From NCBI GenBank assembly GCA_003990765.1, contig RBNJ01000106.1:1-41480 (forward strand): a DNA stretch of 41,480 nucleotides, read 5' to 3'. The translations under genes were made by a program, and so were the position numbers. Numbering within the stretch: position 1 is the first letter of the stretch; each line of letters begins with the position of its first letter. Below the pieces are notes generated by a model. It was given only the letters and a program-made list of their open reading frames with translations, was not told the origin of the DNA and searched no databases. Positions 13,920 to 38,700 of the stretch are shown here, in pieces. The DNA is from Jimgerdemannia flammicorona (lineage: Eukaryota).

Positions 13920-14322
13920 TGTAATATTTTAGCATAGTTTATTCCTTTTCTTTGTCTTTCTTCAATATTCTATGACTTTCCAGTACTTTCCAAATGCTTA
14001 GAAATCCTGTCTTGGTGCTGAGCATTAACTAGTACTCATTTAGTTAGTCACTGAATGTCCTGGAAATATATAGAACTTTATTTGTTATTATTTATTATCT
14101 TTGCCGAGAACTTTCCTCTTGGCATTTTCCTTTGATTTCTCAGATCCTTCCAGATCCTTCTTTCAGATCTTATATAAATATCCCCTTTGTTCTCATGAAT
14201 AAAGTCTCAGAATATTTTCTCTCAGAAATCCTTCGAGAACACTTGAATCCTTAGTATCTCTTTGAGCTACTTAGGACCATCAGACTTAGTCACTTCCTCA
14301 TTTAGAAACTAGAACCATTACA
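13920..14322 (+). repeat. 5' LTR of element A
   Basis: tgtaatattt...ccattaca, colinear without gaps with 19532-19934; contains TATAAATA and AATAAA. Confidence 0.95.
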
Positions 14323-14324
14323 CT

Positions 14325-14336
14325 TGGTAGCAGCAG
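14325..14336 (+). other. Primer-binding site of element A (initiator tRNA-Met type)
   Basis: tggtagcagcag 2 nt after the LTR. TGGTAGCAG is complementary to the CUGCUACCA 3' end typical of eukaryotic tRNAiMet. Confidence 0.7.
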
Positions 14337-14390
14337 TTAAGTTACACCTAGCCTTATCAAGATACCTCTCAAGATATCAGTCACAACACT

Positions 14391-17300: not shown

Positions 17301-19230
17301 TGCCTTCTGTCAATAAGCTTTTCAAGAACTCAAGAACCACCTGACCCATGCACCTGTCCTTAGAAACATGGACCCAAACTTGAAGTTCATGGTCACTATA
17401 GATATATCTAACTTTGCCATTGGTGCAGTCATTTCTCAAGATGATGGTCAAAGACACTGACCTATTGCCTTTGAGTCAAGAAAATTGTCCCCAGCAGAAC
17501 AAAAGCTGGCTACTCATGAAAAGGAACTCCTGGCAATCATGCATGCCCTCAAGACCTGGTGACACTATCTAGAAGGAGTTGAGTTTGACATGATTACTGA
17601 TCACAGGTCTCTTCAGTACATCAACACTCAACCAACCCTTTCTCACCAACAAGCCAAGTGGAGTCAACTACTTCAGACCTTTACCCCAAACATCATCTAC
17701 AAGTCTGGCAAAACTCTAGTTATACCAGATGCACTTTCAAGGAGACCTGACCTTGCTGTGATTTTACAAGTTACCATAGCATCTGAATTCCTCAACCAGA
17801 TCAAGAAGGCATATGAACAAGACTCTCTGGTTTTACAAAGGAACACCAAGGAATTCAAGGAAAAGTACACCATCAAGGACAACCTCATGTACTATCAAGA
17901 CAAAGTATATATTCCTGCCAACTCTGAACTATGGTATAAGATTCTTTATGAACATCATGACTCCCCACTAGCTGGTCACCTTGGAACTGAGAAGACCATC
18001 AAGAATACCCAATGAGACTACTACTGGCCAAACATGCTCAAGGAAATCAAGGAGTATGTCCAAAGCTGCGATCTTTGCCAAAGAAACAAGTCAAGCAACC
18101 AAGCACCTGCCAGTCTTCTACAACCCTTGTCAATTCCGACCAAGAAGTTCGAACAAGTCACAATGGACTTCATTGTACAACTCCCATGAATCAAAACAAG
18201 CTATGATGCTATTGTTGTGTTTGTGGACTGTCTCACCAAGATTACAATTGCTGAGCCAACCACAACCAATACCACTACCCCAGAAATTGCAAGAATCTTC
18301 TTCAAGACTGTCTTTCATCATTATGAACTTTCCCAAGTAATTATCAGCGACCATGACCCCAAGTTCACAAGTCACTTCTGGCAAGCACTCTTCAAGACCC
18401 TTGGAATCCAAATTGCTATGTCCACTGCCTTCCATCCTCAAACTGATGAATAGACAGAGTGAATGAACAGAACACTTGAACAAATGCTCAGAAACTATAT
18501 GTCTTATGAGCAAGATGATTGGGACCACTATCTGACCTACACCAAGTTTGCCTACAACAATGCCAACCAATCATCAACTGGTCTTTCCCCATTCCAGCTA
18601 CTTCACAGTCAAAACCCTGAGACCCCTGCGAGCCTAGTCCAATTCCAGCAATCCAGTCACACACAAGTCCCCACAGCTCAGAACCTTATCAACAAAATGG
18701 ATTCCCTTCTCAAGATTGGCACTACAAACCTACAAAAGACTCAGCAACATCAAGCTAAGTATATAGATAAGAAGCAGCGAGATGTCATATATAACATTGG
18801 TGATATGGTTCTACTCAAAGCCAACAACATCAAGACTCAATCTCAAGTTAACCACCAGTTAGCCAAATTCCAGCCCAAGTATCTTGGACCCTTCAAGATC
18901 ACTGAGCAAGTCTCTACCTGGTCTTACTGTCTCAACTTGCCAACAACTATGTGTATACATCCAGTATTCCATGTGTCACAACTCAAGGTCTGGAACCAGT
19001 CACCCCTATACCCTGGCTGAATTCCAACACCATTAGCACCAGTTATAGTTGAAGACCACATCAAGTATGAAGTTGAGAAAATCTTAGACAAATGAGTCTG
19101 ATACCATCACACAGAATACCTAGTCAAGTGGATGGGTTACCCTGAGTATGATGCCACCTGAGAACCTGCCACCAATCTCAAGAACTCCTAAGACCTCATC
19201 CAAGAGTTCGAGCAAAAAGGAACTCATTGA
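14391..19230 (+). pseudogene. gag-pol of element A: Gag with CCHC knuckle, dUTPase, protease, RT, RNase H, integrase, chromodomain; many in-frame stops
   Basis: CFFCCQPGHIATKC; IAPRSGLS / GDRIAQL / DFGST; LIDSRA; YIDD (16936-16947); ITDHRSL; HHDSPLAGHLG...CDLC; HPQTD; GPF; YEVEKILD..YLVKWMGY. Start is approximate. Confidence 0.92.
15440..15830 (+). pseudogene. Trimeric dUTPase domain in element A polyprotein
   Basis: All five motifs are recognisable: GLDL, IAPRSGLS, (G)VIDSDFQG, GDRIAQLI, KRDQKDFGST. The equivalent in element B is at ~33855-34260 (-). Confidence 0.9.
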
Positions 19231-19518
19231 CTGCCCATAAGGTTCTCCCCTTGGATAGTAGATGATCTACTGTACTGATCAATTAGGGCTCTCTAAGGGA
19301 TACAGCATCAGAAGCAAGAGATATAGGAGAACCCTATAAATCCTGTAACTAATGAGATTCAAACCAGTTCTCATCCAATCAAGATGATACTTTGGCCTTC
19401 GCCTTATATAAGGATGGTCAATCCTTACCAATGAGTCAGTATATTTAATTTGAAGTTTCTTTTAGTCTTATTGTTTATCATGTGTAACTTTGAGAATTCA
19501 ACAAGGACATTGATTCTT

Positions 19519-19531
19519 AAGGAGGGGGAGA
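19519..19531 (+). other. Polypurine tract of element A
   Basis: aaggagggggaga abutting the 3' LTR. Confidence 0.85.
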
Positions 19532-19934
19532 TGTAACATTTTAGTATAGTTTATTCCTTTTCTTTGTCTTTCTTCAATATTCTACAACCTTCCAGTACTT
19601 TCTGAATGCTTAGAAATCCTGTCTTAGTGTCAAGCATTAACTAGTACTTATTTAGTTAGTCACTGAATGTCCTGAAAATGTGTAGAACTTTATTTGTCAT
19701 CATTTGTCATCTTTGTCGAGAACTTTCCTCTTGGCATTTTTCTTTGATTTCTCAGATCCTTCTGGATCCTTCTTTCAGATTTTGTATAAATATCCCCTTT
19801 GTTCTTATGAATAAAGTCTCAGAATATTTTCTCTCAGAAATCCTTCAAGAATACTTGAATCCTTAGTATCTCTTTGAGCTACTTAGGACTACCAGACTTA
19901 GTCACTTTCTCATTTAGAAACTAGAACTGTTACA
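19532..19934 (+). repeat. 3' LTR of element A
   Basis: tgtaacattt...ctgttaca, 403 bp. Confidence 0.95.
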
Positions 19935-20720
19935 CTTAAAGAGATACTTAAAGGTTCAAGTATTTTTGAAGGATTTCTGGAAGAAAATATTCTGAGCTTT
20001 ATTCAGGCAGAGAATAAAGATATTTATACATGATCTGAAAGAAAGATCCAGAAGGATCTTGGAAAGAAAGAGAAATGTCAAGAAATAGGTTTTTGGCAAA
20101 GCTGACTAATACTATTCTATAATGTTCCAAAAGGTTCTATGACTAGCTAAGATAAGATACTTAGTACCAAGGAAAGACAAGAATGTTTTAGTAGTGTCTG
20201 GGTGCCAAGAGAAGGTTTCTAAGCAAGTAGAAGGTGGTGGAACATAGTAGAATGTTTAAGAAATAATAAAAAAAAACTAACTAAAAGATGTAAAAATATA
20301 CTAAGACTAAATATAATTGTGAAATTGTTACATCTCTTCCTCTTTAAAAACCAATGTTCTCATTGAGTTCTTAGGTAACATAAGACTAGATATACTTAAC
20401 CAAAATTTCTTAAACTTGTATTAGTGCATTGGTGAGAATTGGCCATCCTTATATGTATAGGGCAGAGGGCCTATTATCAAACTAACTAACTGGGAGAAGT
20501 TTGAACCCAGCTAGTAGCTTCATTTTGGTAGACTTTTTGTTCATTAAATGTTCTGCTAGTTCCAGGGTTCCAAAGTAAACTTTTGATACATAAGGTACTG
20601 GTCTTTGCCATAGGTCATTGACAATCCAAGGAAGTCACTATAGAGATTAGACAATACATTTTGTCTTGAAGTCTTAAACTAGATCTTGAGAGTTCTTGAG
20701 ATTGATCAGTAGTTCCCAAG

Positions 20721-21073: not shown

Positions 21074-21791
21074 TTCCTAGGTAGCATCATATTTAGGGTA
21101 ACCCATCCACTTGACTAGGTATTCAAGATGGTGGTAGTGGATTCATTTGTTAAGAATTTTCTCAGCTTCATACTTGATATGGTCTTTAATAATCATAGGG
21201 GTAGAAGGCTTAGGAATTTGACCAGGGTAGGGCAGTGACTGGTTCCAGGTCTTGAGGTGTAACACATGAAATACTGGGTAACTCTCATGATTTCAGATAG
21301 CTTGAGGTGATAAGAGGATGCAGAGACTTGTTTAGTAATTTTGAAAGGTCTAATATACTTAGGTTGGAACTTGTTTGAAGAGCAGTTGACTTGAGATTGT
21401 ATCTTGAGGTTCTCAGTAGACAGTAGGACTTGGTCTCTAATAGTATAAGTGACATTATAGTATTTCTTATCAGTATACTTGACTTGATACTATTGAGCCT
21501 TCTATAAGTGCACAACCTCCAAGCCACTGAAATCATACATCACTCTCTGAACAAGTTACTGAAATCACATGTGACCTCTAAACAAATCTGAAAATCACCT
21601 ATACAATTATGAAGCTGAGTCAAACCAAAGTCACAGTACACAAAGCTGAGTCAATACGAAGTCACAGAATATAAGATTACACAAACAGAATCTTACCAAT
21701 TAGGACTAAATATATATATACTGAGCACCGAGATATATTGAAACAGAGAACTAAAACAAACAACAACCACAACTTCTGAATATATACAAAC

Positions 21792-22893
21792 ATGACCACT
21801 GAGATCTACAACCACATCCACACTGATATTTGGAATGCCATTATCAACCGAGCCACACCCCCTCTACTCCTCATGAATATCCATAGTCTAATACCTCTCT
21901 ACTTCATGGAAGCTCAATGGAATGCCCTGAATATGCTTAGTGAGACCTACCAAATTGGACAAATCTCAAGCTACTACCAGATTGGCCACCTCCTAGAAGA
22001 TATGGTTGAATACCACTATGATATAAATATTACTCAGATGTCTCAACACCAGAAACTCATTGCCCGTAAACATTGAAAACTCTTCTATGAGTTCAGCACT
22101 GTTATTCTCCATCTCTGAGTTACTACCACCAAAATGGTCACTACTCTGTCCTATGGCCAAATTGACAACATGATACAAGAACTCAACCACAAGTATCTCA
22201 AATATATTCAGACCACAGACAGAACCTTCCCATACCCTGATGACTATATTCTGCAAATGCCTTAAGTCAGATATATGTACAATAAAGAATATCTATAATA
22301 TAATCCAATTTGACAAAGATGAAGCAGAAGACAATGATCTCTCAGATACCAATATGACTGCAAGCTAAGGATCCCTGCTAACTCTGATCACTCTGCTAAT
22401 ACTGCTGATGAACTTACAACAGTTTATAACCATCTATGAGACCTATTGGGACAATGATCACTGGCATGAATACCAACTCACATTTACCCCCGATTACTTC
22501 AACTACAATGAAGAGACAGAAGAACACAACCTGTACCTTCAGATAACTCTTGAGATTGAACCAACCACTCCACCACCCAAGTATGAGTGATATGAACCAT
22601 AGCCACCAGCTTACTACAACCCTATAACTTATAGTGCTGTAACCTACAAAAGGTATGCAGATAGTGAATCCAATGAAAGTGAAGACAATGCACCACTCCT
22701 TCACCCATCAACTCCATACCCAGCATATGAGACAGATGATACTATCCTATGGGACAGTGATGAAGTCCCAATATATTACTACCTTAGTGAATAAGGAGAA
22801 TTAATCTGCAAATAACTCTTCCTAGATGACTACTTCATTGGAGATGATGCAATTGATAGTGATGTTATTGAAGACTACCCAGACAGCATCTAA
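21792..22893 (+). pseudogene. Degenerate acidic, Tyr/Pro-rich ORF of unknown function inside solo LTR copy 1
   Basis: MTTEIYNHIH... continues through isolated stops and one or two frameshifts to ...PPPKYE*YEP*PPAYYN...DDAIDSDVIEDYPDSI*. I recognise no family. Confidence 0.55.
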
Positions 22894-23559
22894 ATCTATA
22901 AATAGCTTAGTAGTTATAGCATAGCTAGATTAGCCTTATACAATATGACTGTAAACTGACTCAGTAGTCAGATGATCTCTTGATATATCAGATCACCCTT
23001 ATACTATATGACTGCATTCTGACTTAACAAGGCACTAAGTGCTACATCCATATCTAGCATAGTCCAGATAACCCCTCACTAGTATAAATACCCCCTCCCC
23101 CAGACCTCAGAATCTCAGACTTGAATAGACTTGAATACATAAGAACACTTCTGAGCACTTTCCCACAATATCCCTTTATATAACTACTCCTAGTATAGTA
23201 ATATCATAAATAGCAAATAAACCTATTTAATAATCCACAAACTACTCTTAAGTAAATCTGCTCCCTATTAGGTCCCACTCCTACCCCCATCATGAAGTTT
23301 CCTAATTGAGTATTGTCTGCAGCAATATACTGATTTAACTAAGCTGGTCTTAGTTTCTTGAACTTCCTGAAATACAGAAAATCTCAAACATCCAGAACTA
23401 GTCTGAAAAAGAAACTTTGGTTGAGACATCAACCCAATCTTGAAATCAATAAGTATAGAGGATATACTCTATATAAAATTGATCTTAATCATAAGAAAAC
23501 AGTCTTCCAGAATATCCAGAACTTCCAGAAAATCATTCCAGAACTATATAACAGTTACC

Positions 23560-26500
23560 TTTTTTTTTTTTTTTTTTTATAGTTACTTGGACTCTGCTAT
23601 TTATTACTCATCTATTAATAAGTTTACAGTATACCCTCCCACTATCTGATCCCCATAGGGGTGCCACTCCCCCCATCTACACAAATAAAGACCACTTTCT
23701 CACCTGCAACTCCAACCCTCCCCCCACTCTGCCTACAGATTTTCTCTACCAAACAATACCTTCGACCCCCCTATAACCCCCAACCAAGCCACCAGCCCAT
23801 CAAGGTGTCTTCCATAAAGCCACACTACCTCAGCAGTCTGATCTCAGAGCCAAGTCTCCTCTTATCCTCAAAAACAAATAACCAGTAACTGGCCAGCCCC
23901 ACCCAAATGGCCAAAGTTCAGCCTAATGTCAGCCATTCCTTCCCCACTCCCCCCTCCAATCTATCCCTTAAATCCTCCCATCACTCCCACACACCAGCTC
24001 CCCTACACACTACCCCCAAATGATCTCCAATGTTTTGCCAAAAGGTACTAAGTACCTCACACTCTCCTAGCCAATGTTCAGGCATCTGCATATATCCCCC
24101 TTCCTGCCTTATATTATAACACTCTTCACATTCGAAGCAACCTCCCTCGATAAGGTGACCTGAGCAGAAGTTGAGCATGACATTCTGCCTCAGCACATAC
24201 TACCAGACCACCCAGTACTTCAGCAGCAGCCACCTCCTCACCTCAGTACTTCAGGCCCAAATGCTATACCAGTTCTACTCCTTACCAATTTCTACTCCTT
24301 GCCAACTGCTAGGCCACAGGTCCTGGCCTGGTCCCCATTGGCATTCGATCCCATTACCAATGTCAAACTCCATTAGGGGAATGCTGCCCAGTAACACTTG
24401 GTCCCATCTCCACATCACTGGGTCTCAAGCTACCTCCTCTTTATTTCCCTGCTACCTAATTCCAATGCAGTGCACTCTCTCTGCCACTCCCCACCAGAAG
24501 CCTTTGAATTGCAATTGTTCAGTATTCTGAAGGCCCACAAGTGATAGGAGATCACCAGTCAAACCCCTCAGAGAGGACCTCATCTCCCAGACTTTCTGCA
24601 GTAGAGGGACCCAACCACCCCCTCTCAACTCCACCACTCTCTTCAGCCACCATGCTCTCAAGCAGTGCAGCCTCTTAGGAAAGTCAACCAGCCCAAGTCC
24701 CCTACTTGCCACCAGTAAGGACAAGACCTCCCAGCTGATCTGACTCCACCTTCCAGCCCAGATCCACCCCTTGGCCAGCTTCATCAATTGCTTCACCACC
24801 CAAGCTGGGAAGTCCAAATGATAAGCCAGATACCACAACTTTGGCAGTCAATAGATGTTCAGAATCGAAATGCATCCTACCAGAGACAATTGGCGGCCCC
24901 CCCAGCTCTGTAGAGTCTCCTTCCAGATGTCAACCTGCTGCTCCCACCAAAGTCTGGGCAGAACCGATCCATATACTGACAGATAAATACCCAAGTACCA
25001 TACTGCCTCACCAGCAGGGACAATGGTACCAATAATCTCCCCTCCCACCAGACCATTGCCTAACACTATTGTTTCACACTTATGCCAATTAAGCCTAGTC
25101 CTGGAGTTCACCTCATACCACTCCACTGTTTCCTTGAGCTTCTCAACATCCACAATTGATCCCAGGCTGACCACTATGTCATCTGTAAATGCTCCTACTT
25201 TCCACCCAATGCCAAAGATAGAGAGCCCCACTACCTTCTGCCTGATTCTGTCCATGAAGGGCTCCAGAGAAAGAGCATACAAAATGAGAGACAGTGGGTC
25301 CCCCTGGGGCACCCCCCTACCCAGGAGAAATACTACCTCTCTGTGTCCATTACACATGAGTGCAGCCCTACTCTCTTCTAGTAGGCTTACCATGGCTATT
25401 CTGAACTGGTGTGGGACCCCAATCCTATCCAATACTTTCACCAGCCAGACCCATCGCACTCAGTCATAAGCCTTCTCCTGGTCCAGAAAGATCAGACACC
25501 CATCCAGTCCACTGGCTCATGCCCCTTCAATAACTCCATGAACCCATGCTGTGCCATCTCTGATGAGTTGGCCTCCCACAAAGCCCCTCTACTCATCACC
25601 CAAGACTTGCTGGGCCACCTTTTGCAATCTTGTGACCACTACCTTAGTAACCAACTTTCTGTCCATATTCAGTAGCATAATTGGCCTCCAGTTCTTTCAG
25701 TCCTCATGCCTTCCTTTGTTCTTATAAAGCAACATCACCAGCCCCAGATCCTGTTCTCCCACCCATCTCCCCATCTGTATAATCCAATTACACAGTGCTG
25801 TCATCTCTTCCAGTACTCCTGGGACTCCCACCATCTTTTTCCAGAAGTCCCAGGGCAGACCATCCTCCCTAGGTACCATACCCAAGGTTGTTGTAGCAAG
25901 AATCTGGCAGATCTCCTCCTCTTGCACCAGCAGTACTAAGTCACCCAGCCTCTCTGCTCATGTAGGGTACCAATCCTCCAACACTCTGTCAATGTCCTCA
26001 GTATCTGCCCCACCCTCCTTCTTACTCCACAATCCACTCCAATGCTCCTTTAATGATCCAAGAATGTCTTGTACACTATGCACCAATATACCATTAGCAT
26101 TAAGCACCCCCTCCCACCTTTGTTACACCCTTCTCACCTAAAGGGCTCTTGTGAGAAACTTTGAGAGCTGCTCCCCTTCCTCCAACCCCTGCCAATGAAG
26201 CCATGTGGACCCTTGCCTCGTTCTCATTCTGCAGCACCTGTTATAGTTCAACCACCTCTATTCTTACCCTTATCAATCTCCAGTCCTCCTCTCCCTCCAA
26301 CATCACCAGTCTCACCCAGTCCTCCAAGAGCCTAGACAGTCTACTAGAAGCCCACTGCATCTACTGCCTCCTCTGTTTCCCAGCCTCCTTACCAGCCTCA
26401 CTCCAGAAGGCCCTGGCCATCTCCTTCATCCTCATCTACCAAGTACCAACTGGGGCATCTTCCTGTCTCCAGTACTCCACTTGTAGTTAAATGTCTTCAG

Positions 26501-29416
26501 CCTACTCATCCCATCAGATCTTATCATCTAGTAAGGAGGAATTGAGACACTAATGTCCAGGCCCATCCCTACTCCCCCCAAAACACCCCTGCCCTAAAAG
26601 CCCCCAATGATCCGACCAAGGATACCATTCCACCTCCAGTGACTTCCAAACATCCAAGCCCCAGCAGCTGGCTGTCAGAATCCAATCAATCCTTGTCCCC
26701 AGGCCTCTAGTCCAGTGTGTGTACACCCTCCTATCCCCCCAACATTCTCTACTTACATCCACCAGAGCACTCAGTCTTTCCACTTCCTCCCATACTGCCA
26801 GTCCTCCACTCCAACCCTCAGCTCCTCATCCTCCATCAGTTCTATCCCTCAATATGTCTTGGACCATATTGATGTCCCCACTGAGCATATCCACCCCAAC
26901 CTCCACAAGAATTCCACTCTCCTATAGGCCCTTCACCCAATTCACATACTCTCCCTATACTGCAGGGCAGTAGCAGGAGCCCACTATGACTGGCTTCCAA
27001 CCTGTACATATCCACTCTCCCCAGACCAATCTATCCCCCCAGCTCTACATATCTCTTATCTCCTCTCTGCCTTTCTACACCAGAATCCCAACCTTGCCCT
27101 TCCAGACTGCCTCATCTCCCCACTCCTTCATCCATTCCAGTCTATCCAAGTCATCCTCACACCTGACATCCTGTAAGAGGAAGAGATCAGCCTCCAATCC
27201 CTTCAGTCAGGTAAAAATGTTCTTATATCGATAAGTGCCCTATAACCTATTCATGTTCAAAGAAAAAATATTGGTTGTACTATTCATAATGAAAAAATGG
27301 TGTGTTATCAAGCTTTTTCTACTGCTTCATGTTCATCTCCTCCTGTGCCAAATCCAGATTATATTCCATAGTCACCGCCTCCTCTTCAGTCCTCTGAGCC
27401 TCCAGTCCAGCCAACAGCTCATTTATCTCCCCATCTGCCTTCTCCTTGAATTCCTCTCAGTACTCCAGGCAGGCTTCCTGTCAGAGCTGCAGTCCATGAC
27501 ACTTGGTCCAGCAGTATTCAGCCCTCTCTCCTGTGACTCCTGCCATCTCTGCCTCCCACTCCTTATCTATCTCATAGCCCTCCTCCTCCAGATACACTGC
27601 AAGAATTTCTGCCTTCAATGCCATCACCACCCCCTCCCTCTGCAGGATCCTCACCCAATGCTCATCACTCATTACCCTCAAATCCACCTCTCCCAGCTCC
27701 TCAGCCACCAGGTTGTTCATCATTCTGCATATCCAAAGTAGGTTCCCCACCTCCTTTCCTCCAGAGGTCACCAGCCTCCCACCATCCAGTATTGTGATAT
27801 CAGCCCCAGCACTCGCAGCCTCATCCCACTCCTCTGGAATGTCCACCAGTTCCTCCTCACCAACTACCACCACTTGTCCCCCTTTTGCCATCTCCAGAAC
27901 TCCAAATTGCACTCTCTGGGCCTCCCGCATTAGCACATCCTCCACCACCCTGCTTTGGGAAGCTGGGCCCTGCCTGATAAGAGGAGTAGGGGTAGAGGAG
28001 TCCTCCCATATCTTATCCCAAACCTCTAGCATACCATCTGCATATGGGTCCTTGCCAGTTGCCTCTCTGTTCTTGCCAGTCCCCTTCCCAGCACTCCCAC
28101 TTCCCTTGTCTGCCCAAACACTCACTTTGGCCCCCCCCATGTCCACCATCCTGCTCATATCCTTCTGAGGCCCACCCTTCATTTTTGCCAGCAGTTCCCT
28201 CTATCTCTTATGTCACTGATCTCATTTCCACTGCTCCTTGCTCACTTGAATCTGCTTCCCATCTACCACCTCCAAGTGCATCGCCTCCTTAAAGGCCCTC
28301 CAAGTCTTTGCCTGCTATTCCACCACACCACTCAACTCTTCTAGCACTTCCAATAGGTCCTCTTCCTCCTTCTCACTCCTCTTCACCCTTGTCACCTTAC
28401 ACACAATTGCCCCCCAGACCATACCAGAAGGCCAGTCCCTTGCCTTCCTGGTGGCCTCCTTCTCTGCTAGCCGAATCCTTACATTTATATCTCCAGTCCT
28501 AAGCGAGATCCCCTCCCAGACTCTGAATCCAATATCTACTATCTCTCTATACTCTGCCATGACCTCCTCAACTCTCTTTCTTGTCTCCATCGCTGTCACT
28601 GTAGGCATCCCTTTTACCAGCAGTTGGACCACTCTGGGATCCCATTTCAGGCATTGAGCCATCAGAACACACACTTCCCCAACTATCAATCCAACCTTCA
28701 ATGCCTCCTCCAAAGGCTCAGCCTCCTCAAAGCCCACCTCCACTCCCTCCAGTCCCTTCAAAAACTTTACAGATGCTGCTCCAGCCACCTGCTTAGCAAT
28801 CAGCTTCAGTACTATTTTCACCATCACTGCTAAGCCCCAGAAGCACAGTATCACTACAAATGCCAAGATCAATTTCTTGAGTAACAGCACTACCACCAGG
28901 CCCATCACACTATCTGCTAAATCTCCTTGTCTTCCGAGCTCCAGTTGCTCAGCTGTACCATCTACAGTCACATCTGGATTTTTTTTTCAGATTCACAGTC
29001 CTATCTCCATCAGCTATCACACCCCCCTCAGCCACTATACCTCCAGCCCCACTGCTCTCTCCACTAAGGGCTACTCCCCCATGTACTGTCACTCTCTCCA
29101 TTTCCTTGCCTTTTCTCAACCAACCCTCCAGCCCTGATATCTGCCTTCTCCCCTTCACCATCTCAGCAAAGCTCACTCTCTCAGATCCCTGTCCTCCACT
29201 ACTGCCTCCTTCCCTTCTGTACCCACCTGCTAGCAGCCCCCTCATACCTTCCCCCAGGCCCAGGCCTCTCCCCATGTACTGCCAGTCAAATGCACTCAGG
29301 CCACCCTACCCAGTATATACCTTAGATTACCTGTCAGTTGCCATATTGCTAGTCTCTTTTCTCCAAAAATGATGTTGTAGTTGCTTCCCAAAAGTTGTAT
29401 AACCTGAGAGGTACTG
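23560..29416 (-). mobile_element. LINE copy 2 (L1/Tx1-like), full length ~5.86 kb, degenerate
   Basis: Poly(A) tail (T-run 23560-23578); 14-bp TSD atataacagttacc (23546-23559) / acataatagttacc (29417-29430). ORF1 ~29344-27320 (SFAEMVKG, RRM-like region). ORF2 ~27287-23700 with APE (SLNMN, LFLLQD, GDIN, RIDWIL, SDH), RT (LDQEKAYD, GVPQGDPLS, AFTDD, YLGI) and a C-terminal CxxC...HxxxxC. Confidence 0.93.
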
Positions 29417-30895
29417 ACATAATAGTTACCATAAAAAGTAACCCTCTTACACCTTCTGAAGGTTTGTGGTAGCAATCTTGAGTAGTTTGTCCATTTTGTC
29501 TATAAGGTTCTTAGTGGTTGGGACTTATATTTGACTGTTTTTTTTAAAAGAGAATAGACTTGCAAGGGTCTTGGGATCTTAACTGTAGAGTAACCAGAAA
29601 GGGAAAAGACCAATAGATGATTGAATGGTATTATTGTATGCAAACTCTGAATAAGTCAGATAATGGTCTCAATCATCTTACTCATAAGAAATATAGTTTC
29701 TAAGCATTTGTTCTAGGGTTCTGTTTATGCACTTAGTTTGTCCATTAGTTTGTGGATGAAAGGCAGTAGATATAGCCAATTGGGTTTCTAGGGTCTTAAA
29801 GAGAGTTTGCCAGAAGTGACTGGTGAACTTGGGGTCATGATTGCTGATAATTACTTATAGTAGATCATAGTAATGGAAGATAGACTTAAAGAAGATTCTT
29901 GCAATCTTGGGTGCAGTAGCATTAGTAGTGGTTGGTTCAGTAACCATAGTCTTGGTCAGGCAGTCAACAAATATAATGATAGCATCAGCACCAGATTGAG
30001 TTTGTAGTAGTTGAGTTACAAAGTCTATATTAACTTACTTGAATTTCTTAGTGAAAATTAGCAGTGATTGTAGCAAACTGGCTGGCACTTGGTTGATAGA
30101 CTTGTTGTGCTAATATAGATTACAGCTAGCAATATAGTTCTTGATTTCCTTGACCATACTTAGCCAATAGTAGTAGTATTGAATGTTCTTGACAGTCTTC
30201 TCAATTCCCAGATAATTAGTAAGAGGGGAGTCATAGTGTTCTTATAAAATCTTATAGTATAGGTATATGTTTTCAGGTAGGTAAACTTGATCTTGATGAT
30301 AGATCAGGTTGTTCTCAACAGTATATGTATCCTTGAGCTCATTTGAGAAAACTCTAGTAGTGACTATGTCTTCTTTATAAGTTTGCCTAATTTGGTCTAG
30401 AAATTCTGATGCCAAGGTGACTTGCATAATTGTGGCAAGGTCTGGGCATCTTGATAAGATATCTGGTACTACAAGTATCTTGTCAGGCTTGTAGATGATC
30501 ATTGGATTGAAGGTTTGAAGCTTGAGGCTCCACTTGGCTTATAGATATGACAGGATAGATTGGGTATTGATATACTTGAGGGATTGATGATCAGTGATAA
30601 CATCAAACTCAACACCTTCTAGATAGCATTACCAGTAATCTAGTATATGTATTATTGCCAGTAGTTTCTTCTCATGAGTGACTAGCTTTTGTTCAGCTAG
30701 GGCCAACTTATAGGACTTGAAAGCAATAAGATGATGTCCTTTGCTATCATTTTATGACAGGACTGCTCTAATGATAAAATTCAACACATTAGTAGTAACT
30801 GTGAATTTTAGGCCTTGATCTGCATTATATAAGACTGGAGCATGGGTCAGGCAGTTCTTGAGTTCTTGAAAGACTTGTTGACAGAAGAGGTCTCA

Positions 30896-32392
30896 TGTAA
30901 GCGCACAACCTCCAAGCCACTAAAATCGCATGGTATCCTCAGAACTAATTTGGAAACCACATGTGAGACTACAAAACAAGTTACCGAAGAGATCATCTGG
31001 TTACACAAATACGCCAGCAAGCCTGAGAACCCACCACCAAGATACAAGAATACTAGAAGAAGTACTACAACCATAAGACTGACTCTGAACCGCTATAGCT
31101 AGTTTGGTGTACTATACTATTACAAAGAAGCCGAAAGTACCAAACTCAAATCAAGACAAGAAGAACCCTATCTCACCCATCAAAAGGTTCACGAACTGCA
31201 CTTATCAACTCAAGACCAAGATATACTGTGACTATACAAGACCTCATTACTTAGCAGAAGCAAAATGCATTTGAACAACTCTGTTCGCTTTATCTGTGTC
31301 ACCTCCGTTGGAGAGTGACAGACACTTCATCTGAACTCAAGAAAGCCGACAATGTCAAAACCAATCTCAAGCCATCCATGTAATAGATATTACTACTAGA
31401 AATTGCCTTGGATTACAGAAAATATCATTTCTGAGAGGTTCGAACCCCCAGCCGCGACATTGGGAGCCCTCGCCCTAGACAAGAATGGCCAGTCCTCGCA
31501 AATGCACCAGCAGACCAAAAAAAAAGAGAACCAAGACCTGTTATCCTTATATAACCACCGCCACCAAGGACAGCCTTAATCTTACAAGAGATAGACGTAA
31601 CGACATCTTGAAAACTGATGATGTCAGAAAAAACTACTCAGACTTTGCCAGTGATGATGTCATCAATAGTGATGTCATCGAGGACTACCCAGATAGTGCC
31701 TAAACCTATAAATAGTCTAGCAGTCATAGTATAGTTAGATTAGCCTTGTACGACGTGACTGTGAACTGACTCAGCAGTCAGACGATCTCTTGACATATCA
31801 GATCACACTTGTACTACGTGACTACATTCCGACTCAGCAAAGCACTTAGTGCTACATCCATATCTAGCCTAGTCCAGATAGCCCCTCACTAGTATAAATA
31901 CCCCCTCCCCCAGACCTCAGAATCTCAGACTCGAACAGACTTGAACAATCTGAACACAACTCCTGAGCACTTCTCCACAATATCCCTTTATACAAATACT
32001 CCTAGTATAGCAATATCATGAATAGCAAATAAACCTATTCCATAACCCACAAACCACTCTTAAGTAAATCCGCTCTCTGTTAGGTCCTACTCCTAACCCC
32101 ATCACAAAATTTCCTAATTGGGTATTGTCTGCAGCGATACGCTAATTCAACTAAGCTGGTCTTAGTTTCTTGAACTTCCTGAAATACGGAAAATCCTGAA
32201 CATCCAGAACTAGTCTGAGAAAAGGACTTTGGTTGAGACGTCAACCCGATCTTGAAATCAATAAGCATAGAGGACGTACTCCATACGAAATTGATCTTGA
32301 CTATAAGAAAACAGTCTTCCAGAATATCCAGAACTTCCAGAAAACCCTTCCAGAACTACATAACGGTTACCCTAAAAAGTAACCCTCTTACA
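30896..32392 (+). mobile_element. Long solo LTR copy 2 (1497 bp) with a different internal ORF remnant
   Basis: tgtaagcgcacaacc...ccctcttaca; 5-bp TSD TCTCA (30891-30895 / 32393-32397); TATAAATA 31893-31900; AATAAA 32028-32033; retains many CpGs; ORF ends DDVINSDVIEDYPDSA* at 31703. Confidence 0.88.
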
Positions 32393-35274
32393 TCTCAGGT
32401 ATAGGGTACATAGTGGTCTGAGTACAGGGTCTTCCTCATGAGGTTAGTCAGTGGCTTGATAATGCCAGAGAAGTTTCTGACAAAGTGGCAGTAGTAGTCA
32501 GCTAGACCAAGAAAGTATTGGAGTTCTGTAAGGTTTGACAGAATGGGTCATTCTTCAATTGCTTCTATCTTATTGGGTCTACTTAAATTTCTTGTACAGA
32601 GATAATATGGTCAAGATATTTAACTTATTCTTTGAAGAATTTGCACTTCTTGAGCTTAGCATAAAGCTTGTGTTTTTGCAGGATCTCTAAGACTATTCAA
32701 ATGTATTTGAGGTGTTCTTCTTTAGTTGCACTAAAGATCAGGATGTCATCAAGATATACTAATAGAAAAATAAATAGTTGGTCCTTGAATATCTTATTTA
32801 TCAGAGTCTGGAATATGGCAGATACATACATTGGTGAGACCAAATGCTAAGATTAGGAATTTATAGAGTCCAAAGAGAGTCATAAATATAGTCTTAGGAA
32901 TGTCTTCTGGCTTGATTTGAATCTGGTGGTATCCTGATATGAGGTCTAACTTAGTGAAGTACTTGGCATTCTTGAGAGTATCAAAGATTTGATCAATCAA
33001 GGATAGCAGATAGTGGTTCTTGATAGTGAGTTTATTGAGTATATGGTAGTCTATGCATATTTGCAGGGTACTATCTTTCTTCTTGATAAATAAGACTGGT
33101 GAGCTATAAGGAGATTTGCTTGGCTAGATGGCTCCTTATATAAGTAGTTCTTTTAGTTTCTTCTTGACTGTTTCAATTTTGAGTAGCAATATATAGTACA
33201 TATGTTTCTTAGATAGTATAGCTCTTAGGGTCAGTTTGATTTCATGATCAACTTCTTATATAGGTAGTAGACCAGGTAGCTTGTCTGGAAAGACATCCTT
33301 GAATTCTTCTAGCAGTAACTTGATGCTTTTATTGACTGATAGTCTCTTATCTTATTTCTTGAGATGGACTATTACAATAAAGGTATGTATTGTCTTCTTG
33401 AGTACTCTCTTATACTGTATAGCTGACAGTATTGCAATCTGGGTCTTGCTCATGGTCTTGTCTGTCTTGATAGTGATGTTGGTTCCATCTTGAAGTAGGG
33501 TGACTTCATTCTTACACCAATCAATATCTGGGTTATGTTTCATAAGTCAGGGTTTTTCTAAGATCAGATCATAATCTCCTAGTAGTACAACCTCAAAGTC
33601 TACTTATTCTCAATATTTCTGGATCTTGATGGATAGTTTGGCAGCAATTGACTCAATAGGGTACAGAGTACTGTCTGTAGTGACTATATTATTGTTCTTG
33701 AGTACAGGCTTGGTAAGGATCTTGAGGCTTTCAATGAGGTTCTGATTGATGAAGTTTCCTGCAGCTCTGCTGTCTATGAGTACTTGAACTTCTTTTCCTT
33801 TGACTAGGCCTTTGAAAATGAGCTTGATTTTCACTAAGACTTGCTACTTGATCAGTGCTGCCAAAACCTTTTTAATCTCATTTGGTTTCAGAGAGTTCTT
33901 GGACTTCTATAATCTTGAGTTGACTGGCTTTTTCTAGAATCATTTGTATGACTCAGTCTCCTTTCTTGACTGTGTAGTCTTGATTATTCTGGTTGATAAG
34001 TAGAACTTGAACTTATCCTTGAAAGTCTGGGTCAATGATATCAGTACCTACATCTAAATGATGTTTGATACTGAGTCCTGATCACAGTGCAATTCTGGCA
34101 TAATGTCCTTCAGGATATTGAACTGTAATTCCAGTAGGTACCAGAGTTCAGCCCTTGGCTAGAATAGTGACTTGTTTGACTGAGTGTAGGTCAAGACCAA
34201 TGGCTCTTTCTGTTTGATATTGAGGGATCTGGGCCTTTGGATGAAGCTTCTTGACCTTGAGCTCAGATTGACTAGTGGTAGAGTTAACAGATGTATTCTT
34301 AGACAACATAGTGACTGATCTTGAGGGTTTGCTATTCTTCTTAGAATATTTGATTGCAATATGTCCTGTTTGATAATAGAAGAAACAGGCTCTAGATTTC
34401 TTCAGACAGTCCTTTTCTTCAGGGGTGAGCTTGGTGTTCTTTTTGTTCATAGTGTCTAGGTCCATTAGTGCTGGGCCAACTATCCTTGGTTAGTTCTTGT
34501 GATAGTTCTTGAAGTGGTTCTTTTTGTGGTATTCTGGTTCAAAGTAGTTATCAAAAGTGATGACATCAAACCTATCAGCAATTCTCATAACTTTATTAAG
34601 GTTTTTGGGCTCTTCTAGCTTGACCTTAACTTGTGTGTTTCCTTTCAGATCTTGGACATAGCAGTCTATCTTTTCATTCTCAGATATTGCTGATAGCTTG
34701 AGTAGGATTGATAAGAATTGTACATTGTAGCTTTGCACAGACTTGAGTTGCTTGATGTTTGCTAGCTTATCTCTGGTTAGTTTGGTAGCATTAGCAGGCT
34801 TGAACTACTTGTGAAGAGCTCTCTTGAATTATAATACAATTGTGCTACCAGATGGCTGTATTTCCTCAGAAAAGTGTAGCAGCAAATTGGACTTGTATAT
34901 TATCTTCCATTCTTGTGAGCTTGAAGTATTGGTCCAACTAAAAGGTCTATGTATCTATAGATAGTCCTCCTTGATGGCTATCAAAGATATCTGGCTTGAG
35001 TGGCTTGAAACTGACTAGTGCTATAGCAGAATGTGATATACTCATAGTTTGTATTTTCTGCTATTCTAGTTGTGCTTGAAGTTCTTGAATTTGGTGGGCC
35101 ATAGCATTGATTATGTCCTCTATACTGAGTTGCTGTCCTCCTGGCAGAGGGGTCTGGCTGGTAGACTGACTCTTTATGGCTCATTTTGGATTCATGTGAC
35201 TATTTGTGACTGGTTTCCGAATTTGTGTGAGGTTTCTTAATAAGGCAAGATATAATAACACCACTACTACCAAG

Positions 35275-35715
35275 TATAATGGTTCTAGTTTCTTTAAGAG
35301 GAAGTGGCTAAATCTGGAAGTTCTAGTTGGCCTAAAGTAGCTTGAAGAGATACTTAAAGATTTAAGTATTCTTGAAGGATTTCTGGGAGAAAATATTCTA
35401 AGGATATTTATACATGATCTGAAAGAAAGATCTGGAAGGATCTTGGAAAGAAAAAGAAATGCCAAGAAATAGGTTCTTGGCAAAGCTGACTAATACTATT
35501 CTACAATGTTCTGAAAGGTTCTATAACTAGCTAAGACAAGATACTTAGTGTCAAGGAAAGACAAGAATGTTCTAGTGGTATCTGAGCATCAAGAGAAGGT
35601 TTCTAAGCAAGTAAAAGGTAGCAGAACATAGTAGAATGTTTAAGAAATAATAATAAAAGACTAACTAAAAGATGCAAAATATACTAAGACTAAATATAAC
35701 TGTGAAATTGTTACA
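35275..35715 (-). repeat. 5' LTR of element B
   Basis: Matches the reconstructed 3' LTR (13849-13919 + 19940-20332) except for transitions and a ~22-bp deletion that removes the AATAAA. Confidence 0.92.
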
Positions 35716-38700
35716 ATACTAGTGATATGGTAAGCAACAAGTATTCTGAGGTGTGTACTGAGCAGAGAGGCTTAAGTATATTTGATTGGCAGTATGTAGG
35801 GAGGGGCATGGGCTTGGGGAGAAGCATGAGAGACTTGCTGACAGGCAAATAAGGAAGGAGAAGAAGCAGTGTTGGAGGGCAGGAGATCAGGAGAGTAAGT
35901 TTTATAAATAAGGTAAAAGAGAGATAGCTGATGACTGAATGGAAGGCTGGCTGAGAAAGAGTAAGGAGATAGTGAAGAATATGAGACAATAGTAGCTGGG
36001 GGGAGTCTCATTGGGTGGCTAGAGTAGGGGGGCTGGTGATATAGTGGCTGAGGGAATGACTGTTGATGGAAGTGTGATGGGCAATCTGGAAAAAAATCTA
36101 GATGGAATTGCTGATAGTGGACCAAGTTGTGGGAAGAGCATGAGGCCTAGTGACTTGGCTGATGGTGTAATGAGACTGGCAGTAGCTCTGTTACTTAAGA
36201 AGTTGATTTTGGAGTTTACAGTTACTTTATACTTCTGGAGCTTAGTGATGACAGCAAAAATGGTCCTAGGGCTAATCATGAAGCAGATAGGTGGCATGGT
36301 ATCTGTTAAGTTCCTGAAGGGCTTAGAAGGAGTAGAGATGGGCTTTGAGAAGACTAGACCATTAGAGGATATATTGAAAGCTGGGTTGATAGTTAGGAAG
36401 ATATGTATACCAATAGTGTACTACCTGAAGTAGGATCCCAGAGTGGTATATGTAGCTTCTGGTGAAAGGAGTTCCTACAGTGACCATAGTAGAGACAAGA
36501 AGGAGAGTAGAAAAAGTCATGACTGAGTATGGGGAGGTAGTCAATATAGGGTTCAGGGTGTAGAAAAGAACCTCCTTCTAGATAGAGAATATTGATATCT
36601 GAATTTGGTTGGCAGAAAGAGAGGCTATTGGGAAGGCTTGAGACTGGCCTTCAGTAATGATGTGGAGAGCCTTCATATATGAGGTGATGAGGGTAAAGGG
36701 GAGTGAGGAGGAAGAAGACTTATTGGAGGTACATACTAGAGAAGTTGAGTAGTGCAGTAAAGTGGGGGGTGAAAGCTTAGAAGATATTTGTAGAGTTGAT
36801 ACATCTGGAGATTGTTGATGGGAAGTGGGTCCACATTGATGAGGAGCTGTGAGAGAGATCTTAAGGATACAGGAAGTAGAGGAAGTTGCTGGCAAAAATT
36901 GAGAAAGAGATGAAGAGAAATACTGGTAGTAGTGAAAATACTGAAGATATCAAGGTGAGTGTCTGGGCCAGTGGAAGTGGAGAGAATAAGAAGATAGGTC
37001 TGGAGGAGGCCAGGAAGGTACTGAGCAAGGATCCATATGAAGATGATATGTTTGAAGTCTGGGAGGATACTTCTCCTCCTCTTATTAGACAGGGACTAGC
37101 TATAAGAGATCAAGTGGCAGAGGATGTGCTAATGCACAGTACTCAGTAAGTATACTTCAGAGTTCCTGATGTGGTGAAGGGGGGATGGGTGGTAGCAGCT
37201 AGCAAAGAGATATTGGTGGATGTCCTGAAGGAGGAGTGGGATGAGTCTGTAAGCACAGGGGTCAATATCACAATACTGGATGGAGGAAGGCCAGTGACTC
37301 CAGGGAGGAAAGAGGTGGGAAACCTACTATGGATGTATTGGATAATGAATAACTTGGCAGCTGAAGAGTTGGAGAAAGTAGACCTTAGAGTGATAAGTGA
37401 TGAGCATTGGGTATAGATTCTACAGAGTAATAGAGTGGTAGTGGTATTGAAGGTGGAAATACTTGCAGTATACTTAGAGAAGGAAGGGTATGAGATCGAT
37501 AAGGAGAGAGAGGCTGAGCTGGCAGTTGTTGCTGATGAGTGGGCCACCTCCTGTTAGGCTAAGTATTATGGATTGTAGCTCTGACAAGAGGCCTATCTGG
37601 AGTATCATGAGGAAAAGGAGGATGGGGAGATGACTGAGCTATTGGTTGGATTGGAGGCTAAGAGGGCTGAAGAGGAGAAAGTATCTGCTGAATATAATCT
37701 GGATGTAGTACAGAAGGTGATGAACATAGAACAGTAGAGAATGTACTTGATATTACACAATTTTCCTTATAAATAGTATAACCAACATTTTATTTTTGAA
37801 TATAAATGGGTTATGAGGTACTTTTCAGTATCAGAACATTTTTACTTAGCTGAAGGGATTGGAGGCCAATTTCTTTCTTTTGCAGAATATCAGATGTGAG
37901 GATGATTTAGATAGACTGGAATGGACAAAGAAATGGAGAGATGAGGCAGTTTGGAAGGGCAAGGTTGAGATTCTGGTTTGGAGAGGCAGAGGGGAGATAT
38001 ATGATGTGAGGAGCTGGGGAGACAGGCTGGTTTGGGGAGAGTGGATATGAACAGATTGGGAGCTAGTTACAGTGGGTTCCTGCTACTGTCCTGCTATATA
38101 GAGTGAGCATGTAGATTGAGTGAAGGGTCTCCAGAAGAGTGGAGCCCTTGCAGAGGCTAGAGTGGATATACTTGATGGAGACTTCAATATGGTCAGGGAT
38201 GTGCTGGTGGATAGAACTGATAGAGAACAGGGGGCTGAAGATAAGAGTGGAGGGCTGGAGACATAGGAGGAGGTAGAAAGGCTAAGTGCTCTGATAGACA
38301 CTAGCAGAGAGTTCTGGAGTGATAGAAGAGTATACACACATTGGGCAGGTGGCCTAGAGATGAGGATTGACTGGATTCTGATGGTGAGCTGCTGGGGTTT
38401 GGATGTTTGGAAGTTGCTGGAGGCAGAGTGGTATCTGTGGTCAGATTATTGGGGGCTGCTAGAGCAGGGTCATTTTGGGGAGAGTGGGAATGGGTCTGGA
38501 CATTGGTGCCTCAATTCCTCTTTGTTAGATGATAAGGTGCTGTGGAATAAGTGGGCTGAGAATATTCAGCAGAAGATAGAGAGCTGGATGCAGGAAGGTA
38601 CCCTGGTTGGTATCTGGTAGATGAGGATGAAAGAGGCTGCTAGAGCTTACTGGAGTAAGGCTGGCAAGATGGCCAGAAGACAGAGGAGGAAAAGGGTGAG

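Follow-up and report, generated by a model that had tools for sequence, protein, structure and literature searches.

Two related units in the window, the whole 41,480-nucleotide stretch of DNA analysed here, appear to be solo long terminal repeats (LTRs) of one retrotransposon family that carry recombinant U3 subtypes, and the U3 of the longer, type-1 unit seems to hold a real accessory open reading frame (ORF). We consider this combined reading somewhat probable. The family itself is probably a Ty3/gypsy-like LTR retrotransposon. The sequence evidence supports a gene inside the U3 of the long unit, where the U3 assignment itself is one that we infer from the order of motifs.

Two units with LTR-type ends and different middles

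Copy 1, of type 1, measures 2078 bp in total and is divided by a nested LINE, and copy 2 is of type 2 (Table 1). The units end in TGTAA..TTACA with a 6-nt inverted repeat, the termini of copy 1 now reading TATAAG...CTTACA because a G>A change has turned its 5' TG into TA. The 5-bp target site duplications (TSDs) are perfect for both, which agrees with the first-pass annotation of two TG..CA elements with such duplications, the decayed tip of copy 1 apart. TG..CA ends together with 5-bp duplications are the signature of LTR-element integration. For copy 2 the empty site was also observed. One contig from X1, a soil metagenome run with near-identical sequence from which 6108 contigs were placed on the window, joins 30890 to 32393 with five letters that fit both sides, and a single further X1 contig joins 30892 to 32396. 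No third copy of the unit was found within the window.

At their 5' ends the units match at 75.7% over 70 nt (21505-21574 against 30898-30966), the first ~32 nt being the best-conserved stretch. At their 3' ends they match at 86.8% over 720 nt (22843-23559 against 31653-32371), or at 86.9% over 742 columns with the piece past the LINE included. The middles, of 1268 and 686 bp, gave no blastn match to one another. The annotation had described a shared 3' part of ~740 bp with TATA and AATAAA, and middles of ~1.3 and ~0.7 kb that could not be aligned, and both descriptions are borne out; the sharing at the 5' end also stands, but reaches ~70 bp rather than ~30 bp. Divergence between the copies is confined to the part of U3 preceding TATA, with the tip and R/U5 kept. 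The idea that the type-1 middle came from a nested insertion was dropped, since type 2 has its own 686 nt at the same place.

In both copies the order of enhancer-like repeats, TATA and AATAAA is that of U3-R-U5, as judged from motifs only. The layout would be a long U3, two enhancer-like repeats, TATA, an R with AATAAA and a U5 of ~350 nt. Internal repeats of the kind that a TRIM or LARD would have were absent from the units, and that reading was dropped for this reason.

Both insertions lie in a Ty3/gypsy element, Gypsy B copy 2, which is collinear across them, decayed and older than both units; another Gypsy B copy (13920-19934) is nested inside its 3' LTR. We also dropped the idea that copies 1 and 2 are the two LTRs of one element, as their TSDs differ and the intervening sequence is the collinear integrase region of Gypsy B. 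Gypsy B has the same TGTAA..TTACA ends as the two units. Comparison of its LTR with theirs gave no significant similarity (local score 35 against a shuffle maximum of 42), the likeness being limited to these ends and a 15-nt TATA core. The LINE that interrupts copy 1 has its poly(A) visible as T19 at 23560-23578 and its reverse transcriptase on the minus strand at 24851-25459, and has a 12-bp duplication, ATAACAGTTACC / ATAATAGTTACC, at 23548-23559 and 29419-29430.

Table 1. Positions of the units, their candidate reading frames and the surrounding elements in the window.
Feature	Position	Strand	Remarks
Host Ty3/gypsy element B, copy 2	13849-35715	-	Received both LTR insertions; TSD ATACT at 13844-13848 and 35716-35720
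Copy 1 TSD CCTTC, left	21498-21502		
Copy 1, type-1 long LTR, 5' part	21503-23559	+	5' end TATAAG, U3 with ORF, enhancer-like repeats, TATA, AATAAA, most of U5
Type-1 U3 ORF, first part	21792-22274	+	ATG at 21792; stops: TGA codon 95, TGA codon 109, TAA at 22260
Type-1 U3 ORF, second part	22279-22893	+	+1 frame; five internal stops; ends ...YPDSI, TAA at 22891-22893
Nested non-LTR (LINE-like) retrotransposon	23560-29418	-	5.86 kb; interrupts copy 1
Copy 1, last 21 nt (...GTAACCCTCTTACA)	29431-29451	+	Beyond nested LINE; 94% match to end of copy 2
Copy 1 TSD CCTTC, right	29452-29456		
Copy 2 TSD TCTCA, left	30891-30895		
Copy 2, type-2 LTR	30896-32392	+	TGTAAG...CTTACA, 1497 bp
Type-2 frame open from LTR base 1	30896-31579	+	Candidate coding only; 4 stops in 227 codons
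Type-2 open frame, 72 codons	31485-31703	+	MASPRKCTSRPKKKRTK...DYPDSA, stop; uses shared tail
Enhancer-like pair, two 63-nt-spaced direct repeats	31737-31839	+	TGACTCA cores; upstream of TATA; copy-1 equivalent 22927-23024
Inferred promoter and R	31893-32033	+	Motif reading only; TATAAATA (31893-31900) to AATAAA (32028-32033); copy-1 equivalents 23083-23090 and 23216-23221
Copy 2 TSD TCTCA, right	32393-32397		

A candidate gene within the U3 of the type-1 unit

The type-1 ORF is ATG-initiated and spans ~361-366 codons; it lies inside the bounds set by the TSDs and is in sense orientation relative to the TATA>AATAAA axis. It starts 289 nt into the LTR, with an in-frame stop five codons upstream of the ATG and the AT-rich TATATATATA ~70 nt ahead of it, and ends ~190 nt before the LTR TATA; the LTR AATAAA follows ~325 nt past its stop codon. 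The window copy contains eight stops and one frameshift, located between 22274 and 22279. Stop codons are nevertheless depleted relative to shuffled sequence, with 2 in 156 codons against 10.1 ± 2.9 in shuffles and 5 in 215 codons against 17.9 ± 4.0 (P ≤ 0.0045), and the depletion is restricted to one frame per segment. The frame that begins at LTR base 1 of copy 1 stops after 15 codons, and the type-1 ORF is in another frame.

Relatives outside the window were limited to two independent metagenome proteins, P0006 and P0007, each from one short contig. P0006 (128 aa, from a JGI contig of 1180 bp) begins at the same Met, is identical at 97 of 128 residues (76%) and contains no stop, both TGA codons of the window copy aligning to Arg. 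P0007 (247 aa, from an ENA contig of 998 bp) shows 57% identity, ends in YPDSI like the window tail and has a single open frame across the position of the window's frameshift, with two indels relative to the window, both in frame. Decay of the window copy by C>T/G>A change explains 25 of its 31 differences to P0006 and 37 of the 96 to P0007, so that ~59 of 247 residues (~24%) differ from P0007 beyond decay. The stop at 22813 is CAA in 11 of the 11 X1 contigs that cover it. Protein databases list open frames only, and intact type-1 copies are therefore found preferentially. Neutral drift of 42-84 substitutions would leave a 247-codon frame open with a probability of 0.23-0.05. We regard the evidence for selection on the type-1 ORF as modest. 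Where the annotation had seen an ORF remnant in each middle, the stop depletion and the open relatives uphold this for copy 1; for copy 2 it is not established.

Outside P0006 and P0007 the type-1 product has no relative in Pfam, the PDB or 1.84 billion representatives. The Pfam search gave no family at E ≤ 1, the PDB sequence search no match, and P0004, which was aligned with P0006, had no match among longer proteins. P0008, a bacterial repeat protein of 1598 aa that matched in nine short stretches at 36% identity, was judged a repeat or composition match and not a relative. The ESM Atlas provided no usable lead (its model of P0007 has a pLDDT of 0.39), and AlphaFold2, run on a two-sequence alignment for each part, gave no confident fold, with pLDDT values of 54.5 (N part) and 32.3 (C part). 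The C-terminal half has a pI of 4.05 and contains 18.6% D+E, 14.6% Y/F/W and 9.7% P. The protein is probably helical in its N-terminal third and very acidic, aromatic- and proline-rich and non-globular in its C-terminal part. Our leading suggestion for its function, although we consider it rather unlikely, would be an element-encoded accessory factor of the acidic-activator kind that acts on the LTR; the composition of the C-terminal half is the sole support for a transactivator or anti-silencing function.

As the ORF is situated upstream of the LTR promoter, its expression would depend on a subgenomic message or, alternatively, on a promoter within the initial 289 nt of U3, and the LTR's own AATAAA could serve in polyadenylation of the message. 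Both LTRs receive their U3 from the 3' end of the RNA, so a U3 gene would be carried twice per element and left behind in every solo LTR.

The type-2 frames and the shared tail

Frames in both units end in a common tail, DDAIDSDVIEDYPDSI in copy 1 (22843-22893) and DDVINSDVIEDYPDSA in copy 2 (31653-31703), each followed by a stop, and the acidic DYPDS(I/A) ending given in the annotation was confirmed. The tail comprises 17-18 codons, with differences distributed 2/2/7 by codon position (P = 0.039), a bias that loses weight because C/G decay sites make up most of them. Read in frame with the tail, the sequence specific to type 2 stays open over ~50 codons and offers an ATG in a favourable context; the 72-codon frame holds an in-frame 51-nt internal repeat (31619-31649 / 31670-31700). 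In the type-2 tail region some X1 contigs have indels that break the frame, a 1-nt one at 31611 and a 5-nt one at 31629.

A second type-2 frame, open for 68 codons from LTR base 1, is likewise open over the 21 codons that precede it in the adjoining Gypsy (30833-31099 overall). Its four stops compare with 13.2 ± 3.3 in shuffles (P = 0.0055, best of three frames), and it reaches the tail only with a frameshift. P0003, representing the type-2 frame, had no relative among proteins of 124-398 aa. The openness from base 1 that the annotation had pointed out is real, but coding is not established.

The annotation's wider interpretation was of a modular U3 cassette on solo LTRs. The solo LTR and the type-1 U3 gene are supported, but the modular cassette is more thinly backed, by 17-18 shared codons and a 72-codon type-2 frame. 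The term 'interchangeable cargo ORFs' is unproven, because the type-2 middle shows only stop depletion and the 72-codon ORF that uses the tail. A recent recombination with its breakpoint inside the ORF end would account for the shared tail equally well.

Copy number and searches for full-length parents

The unit family is high-copy and dispersed in the X1 metagenome. Summed depth ranges from 335 to 823 over the type-1 U3 and from 362 to 800 over the type-2 U3, and in the shared half it reaches 1814; the flanking Gypsy has 26-152, which places the units at 5-20 times their flanks. The run search traced window sequence to one soil metagenome (share 0.10) and to two runs belonging to the same study, and it listed no RNA runs. 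Neither the window nor the contig scans showed a copy next to a PBS, gag-pol and PPT. In metagenome contigs a 26-nt pattern from the TATA region had no match, and the P0006/P0004 alignment gave 417 pattern matches, 0 of which were confirmed. Neither P0007 nor a transition-tolerant pattern matched viral contigs or genome contigs.

Alternative explanations

It is possible, although we think it less likely, that the units are solo LTRs with recombinant U3 whose ORF is a functionless passenger, captured or arisen de novo and open only in young copies, the tail marking a breakpoint. The shared 3' halves differ almost wholly by transitions (81 of 92 substitutions, with 16 non-transition differences in 742 columns, gaps counted), which would mean that the copies had a common 3' half, tail included, until recently. 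On the estimate above it is not very improbable for the 247-codon frame to survive neutrally, the ORF shows neither a known domain nor a known fold, no relative of the type-2 middle turned up in the size range of proteins searched, and ORF-less U3 subtypes are known in crapaud, in the parts of PMC10787394 drawn on here. A mere passenger is harder to reconcile with P0007, which keeps the whole frame despite its residue differences beyond decay and its two in-frame indels, and with the identical start codon of P0006. The stop depletion in only one frame per segment and the type-2-specific codons open in the tail's frame behind a well-placed ATG also argue against it. A stronger version of our own interpretation, which we regard as unlikely, would be a true accessory gene wholly in U3 that exists in exchangeable versions, one of 360 codons and one short and basic with an NLS-like motif, with the same acidic-hydrophobic tail. 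Each LTR would then be a promoter-ORF-poly(A) unit present in hundreds of copies, and the protein, a counterpart of sag/nef/tas, would act on its own enhancer or on host silencing.

Two further explanations seem far less probable. The units might be something other than LTRs, namely self-contained non-autonomous mobile units of ~1.5-2.1 kb with their own gene, moved in trans by an integrase-type enzyme. This would fit the lack of an internal region adjoining any copy in the window and the possible promoter, ORF and poly(A) signal in each unit. It is very unlikely in view of the integration signature at the ends, their likeness to those of the neighbouring Gypsy B and the U3-R-U5 order of the motifs; in addition, the units have no internal terminal repeats and no PBS-like tRNA match, and Rfam family and tRNA searches of them gave no match. 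Least probable of all, and scarcely credible, is that the coding signal belongs to pol, whose end would extend across the PPT into the 3' LTR. The copy-2 frame open from LTR base 1 and the conservation of the first ~32 nt speak for this account, but the corresponding copy-1 frame closes early, and the type-1 ORF begins well inside the LTR in another frame, with its own ATG behind an in-frame stop and with P0006 starting at the same Met.

A functional type-1 ORF would be the first protein gene found within an LTR of a fungal retrotransposon, as far as our phrase searches of the literature for such genes go, which returned only retroviral cases and internal additional ORFs. Solo LTRs, usually seen as inert promoters, may then be gene-carrying units, U3 subtype turnover could swap coding sequence as well as enhancers, and some of the orphan 'hypothetical proteins' catalogued for fungi and soil metagenomes would be LTR cargo. 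Should the ORF be a passenger, the locus would remain a clean case of crapaud-like U3 mosaicism at the kilobase scale.

Relation to known systems

A gene inside the repeat is an arrangement known elsewhere mainly in a few retroviruses. In betaretroviruses the MMTV sag gene ('LTR ORF') is located in U3, and lentiviral nef and foamy-virus bel/bet overlap the 3' U3. Like the type-1 ORF, these are sense genes wholly or largely in U3, present in both LTRs and upstream of the LTR promoter, and they need their own or a spliced message. The type-1 ORF differs in that neither its sequence nor its domains resemble Sag, Nef or Bel (Pfam and PDB without match), in its fungal-type host and in belonging to an element known here from solo LTRs alone.

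Additional ORFs are described for Boty (brtn), Grande, RIRE2 and Retand as element-specific, lacking known domains and kept within families (PMC7264820), and ORF3 of bdelloid rotifers as modular and swapped between lineages (PMC5408684). In the portions of these sources used here such ORFs are located internally, either after pol and before the 3' LTR or ahead of gag, and many of them are antisense (PMC7264820, PMC5408684), unlike the type-1 ORF, which is inside the LTR and on the sense strand, and so differs from the brtn or aORF-3R type. Cargo within the LTR is found in the non-autonomous elements Cassandra, Helenus and Ajax, where, in the relevant part of PMC10886601, it is a small RNA gene. 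The units here resemble them in LTR-borne cargo and differ in that the cargo is a protein ORF and has no Rfam match.

Copies of crapaud, from Podospora, share R/U5 and vary in the 5' (U3) half before TATA, and recombinant LTRs and TG>TA decay of the tip are described (PMC10787394). Our units likewise vary only in U3 before TATA, keep the tip and R/U5 and show TG>TA decay, and the mechanism proposed for crapaud, recombination or template switching of RNAs packaged together, may also have produced their two U3 subtypes. The LTRs of crapaud are 339-443 bp long, the part that varies being shorter than 200 bp, and the sections of PMC10787394 considered report no ORF in them. Here, by contrast, in a comparison by description, U3 is ~1.0-1.6 kb and one subtype encodes ~360 codons. 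As far as these sections go, the U3-subtype pattern itself is already described for crapaud, and the type-1 ORF in U3 is the new point.

Two long LTR-like units within a retroelement nest

The window is eukaryotic. Its first 13,000 bases (GC about 50%, CpG observed/expected 1.06) contain fungal-type genes for a TPR protein, a FERRY subunit-3 homologue, a class-III aminotransferase and SPT8, and from 13.8 kb onward it consists of nested, decayed retroelements. The CpG ratio is 0.07-0.12 in the old repeats (13000-41480) and 0.56 in the type-2 unit, the shorter of two LTR-like units. Both units lie in the integrase region of copy 2 of Gypsy B, a Ty3/gypsy element, 1.44 kb apart and antisense to their host, and the Gypsy B sequence is collinear across both insertions.

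Features of the retroelement nest
Feature	Position	Strand	Details
Gypsy B copy 2 (Ty3/gypsy)	13849-35715	minus	TSD ATACT at both sides
Gypsy B copy 1, nested in 3' LTR of B copy 2	13920-19934		TSD CTCAA/CTTAA
Type-1 unit	21503-23559 and 29431-29451		own length 2078 bp; cut by LINE-like element at 23559; second CCTTC follows its end
LINE-like element interrupting type-1 unit	23560-29418	minus	5.86 kb; T19 23560-23578; RT 24851-25459; 12-bp TSD
Type-2 unit	30896-32392		1497 bp; TGTAAG...CTTACA; TSD TCTCA

The first-pass annotation had described the units as elements with TG..CA ends and 5-bp target site duplications that share their tip and 3' part, and this description was confirmed, the TG of the type-1 unit now reading TA. 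The perfect 5-bp duplications at two units are far beyond chance. In a soil metagenome run two contigs join 30890/30892 straight to 32393/32396, with five letters fitting both sides in one of them, and read as the empty site of the type-2 unit in other Gypsy B copies. No internal terminal repeats, tRNA or Rfam family were found in the units, and both are very probably solo LTRs. That one family inserted twice into one element suggests targeting of existing repeats.

The units are 75.7% identical over their first ~70 nt, the first ~32 nt being nearly identical, and 86.9% identical over their last ~740 nt. In this 3' half transitions account for 81 of the 92 substitutions, both within CpG and elsewhere, and non-transition differences, gaps included, number 16 in 742 columns; the two halves were therefore nearly identical before C>T/G>A decay. 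Together the CpG depletion and the excess of transitions point to a mutational process, possibly methylation-linked or RIP-like, that would act on repeats only. Successive features of the shared half are two TGACTCA-core repeats spaced by 63 nt, TATAAATA, an AATAAA ~135 nt on and ~350 nt further, which from these motifs may be read as U3-enhancer/TATA, R and U5. The middles (1268 and 686 nt) have no match to each other at the DNA level, and their likeness as protein is confined to the last 18 residues.

Several other features of the nest were observed. Its three levels consist of B copy 2, then B copy 1 and both long LTRs in the same orientation, then the LINE-like element inside one LTR. B copy 1 has 403-bp LTRs (TGTAAC..GTTACA), the PPT AAGGAGGGGGAGA, the PBS TGGTAGCAG and the domain order gag, dUTPase, protease, RT, RNase H, integrase, SH3. 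A second LINE-like copy at 35999-41480 (+) is inverted relative to the first and ~71-81% alike; in both, RT is the sole detectable domain and strand composition is extreme (GC skew to -0.5), with a G-rich, C-poor sense strand. Reiterated TTCCAGAA/TTCTGGAA words, which resemble heat-shock-element half sites, are present in the presumed U5 portion of the long units (32168-32344, 23503-23545) and recur in the unrelated LTRs of Gypsy B (13880-13900, 19950-19990, 35300-35400). The dUTPase domain of B copy 1 (15439-15753, +; Pfam E = 1.9e-29) precedes the protease (15862-16155). Earlier reports of a retrotransposon dUTPase, as summarised in the available part of PMC5408684, come from basidiomycetes only and place it between PR and RT.

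An open reading frame in the type-1 unit

An ORF remnant had been proposed for the middle of the type-1 unit, and both the window and outside sequences bear this out. The ORF begins at an ATG at 21792, 289 nt into the unit and five codons after an in-frame stop, runs to 22274 and, following a one-base shift, from 22279 to the TAA at 22891-22893. It comprises ~365 codons with 8 internal stops, and strong stop depletion is restricted to this frame: the first segment has 2 stops where 10.1 +/- 2.9 are expected, and the second has 5 where 17.9 +/- 4.0 are expected. Two metagenome proteins cover it with open frames. P0006 (128 aa, from one JGI contig of 1180 bp) shares the Met start, is stop-free and 76% identical, and has Arg opposite both window TGA codons. 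P0007 (247 aa, from one ENA contig of 998 bp), one of only two matches among 1.84 billion representatives, is 57% identical, reads straight across the window frameshift and ends ...DDVIDDDLIAEYPDSI. The two overlap by ~15 residues and jointly imply ~361 codons. The other match is to a bacterial repeat protein, over nine short stretches, and was discarded.

The differences expected from C>T/G>A decay of the window copy are 25 of 31 against P0006 and 37 of 96 against P0007, leaving ~59 of 247 residues that truly differ from P0007 and two in-frame indels. The window stop at 22813 is CAA in 11/11 covering soil contigs. Depth in that run is 335-823 over the type-1 U3 and 26-152 over the flanking Gypsy sequence, and the ORF-bearing form itself is therefore high-copy. 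One contig (depth 2.4) swaps 230 nt of the ORF (22376-22607) for 26 other letters, a net change of 204 nt, or 68 codons, that keeps the frame.

In favour of constraint, the frame stays open across 247 codons despite ~24% divergence beyond decay, all indels preserve it and the start is conserved; the case for a functional gene is moderate. Against this, random substitutions in this frame create stops at only ~3.4%, so that 42 to 84 neutral changes would leave 247 codons open with a probability of 0.23-0.05; moreover only open frames appear in databases, and the outside sequences number two. On balance we consider it more probable than not that the type-1 U3 gene is real and was once functional.

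The ORF gave no Pfam family at E <= 1, no sequence relative in the PDB and no usable lead from the Atlas, whose model of P0007 has a pLDDT of 0.39. AlphaFold2, run on two-sequence alignments, returned a helical N part at low confidence (pLDDT 54.5) and a C part without a fold (32.3). The C half has a strongly acidic composition that is also rich in aromatics (pI 4.05; 18.6% D+E, 4.0% K+R, 14.6% Y/F/W, 9.7% P). Acidic activation domains have recognised features, and from composition we would guess at an acidic activator-type factor.

The type-2 middle and the shared tail

In the type-2 unit, 4 of the 227 codons in the frame read from LTR base 1 (CKRTTSKPLKSH...) are stops, where 13.2 +/- 3.3 are expected (P = 0.0055 for the best of three frames). 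This frame is just as open through 21 codons of the Gypsy flank upstream, reaches the tail, the ORF end common to both units, only via a frameshift, and has no relative among proteins of 124-398 aa; the corresponding frame of the type-1 unit stops after 15 codons. The tail frame itself is open for 74 codons, where 4.5 +/- 2.0 stops are expected in 68 (P = 0.006-0.021), with an ATG in good context at 31485, a basic PKKKR stretch and an in-frame 51-nt internal repeat of the tail. At 31549 all 14 covering soil contigs have G against A in the window, changing TAT to TGT and giving C-Y-P-C in this short frame.

Between the units the tail differs by 2/2/7 changes by codon position (P = 0.039), a bias that is only suggestive because most differences are decay sites, and some soil contigs carry a 1-nt indel at 31611 and a 5-nt indel at 31629. 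On this evidence, the idea that two exchangeable coding bodies share a single tail would seem possible but rather unlikely. The shared tail is accounted for equally well by a recent recombination that broke within the final 20 codons of the type-1 ORF.

Proposed mechanism and comparison with known systems

The data establish the insertion structure, the family's copy number, the mosaic nature of its LTRs and the presence, upstream of promoter motifs, of a conserved orphan ORF. LTR elements replicate by a well-established scheme in which whatever lies between PPT and promoter is copied to both ends; each element would thus carry two copies of the ORF, and each solo LTR one. The ORF would lie in the 3' portion of the genomic RNA and would need a subgenomic or internally promoted mRNA; the AT-rich TATATATATA at 21711-21722 and the AATAAA of the LTR could delimit a putative unit of ~1.5 kb.

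The type-1 layout works in the manner of MMTV sag, or of nef and bel, the latter two overlapping U3; having no homology to them, the ORF falls outside those families. Full-text searches of the main texts of openly accessible papers gave no case of a protein ORF carried within an LTR of a fungal retrotransposon. As described in the parts of the sources available, the additional ORFs of Boty, Grande, RIRE2 and Retand are internal and often antisense, unlike the type-1 ORF (PMC7264820), and bdelloid ORF3s also differ from it (PMC5408684). The crapaud LTR subfamilies of Podospora (Westerberg et al.) have a conserved R/U5 and a variable 5' half before the TATA, a mosaicism attributed to gene conversion and recombination during reverse transcription (PMC10787394). 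Unlike the long units, crapaud LTRs measure 339-443 bp and carry no ORF reported in the available part of that text; as in crapaud, both units join a variable 5' half ahead of the TATA to a conserved part, the putative R/U5.
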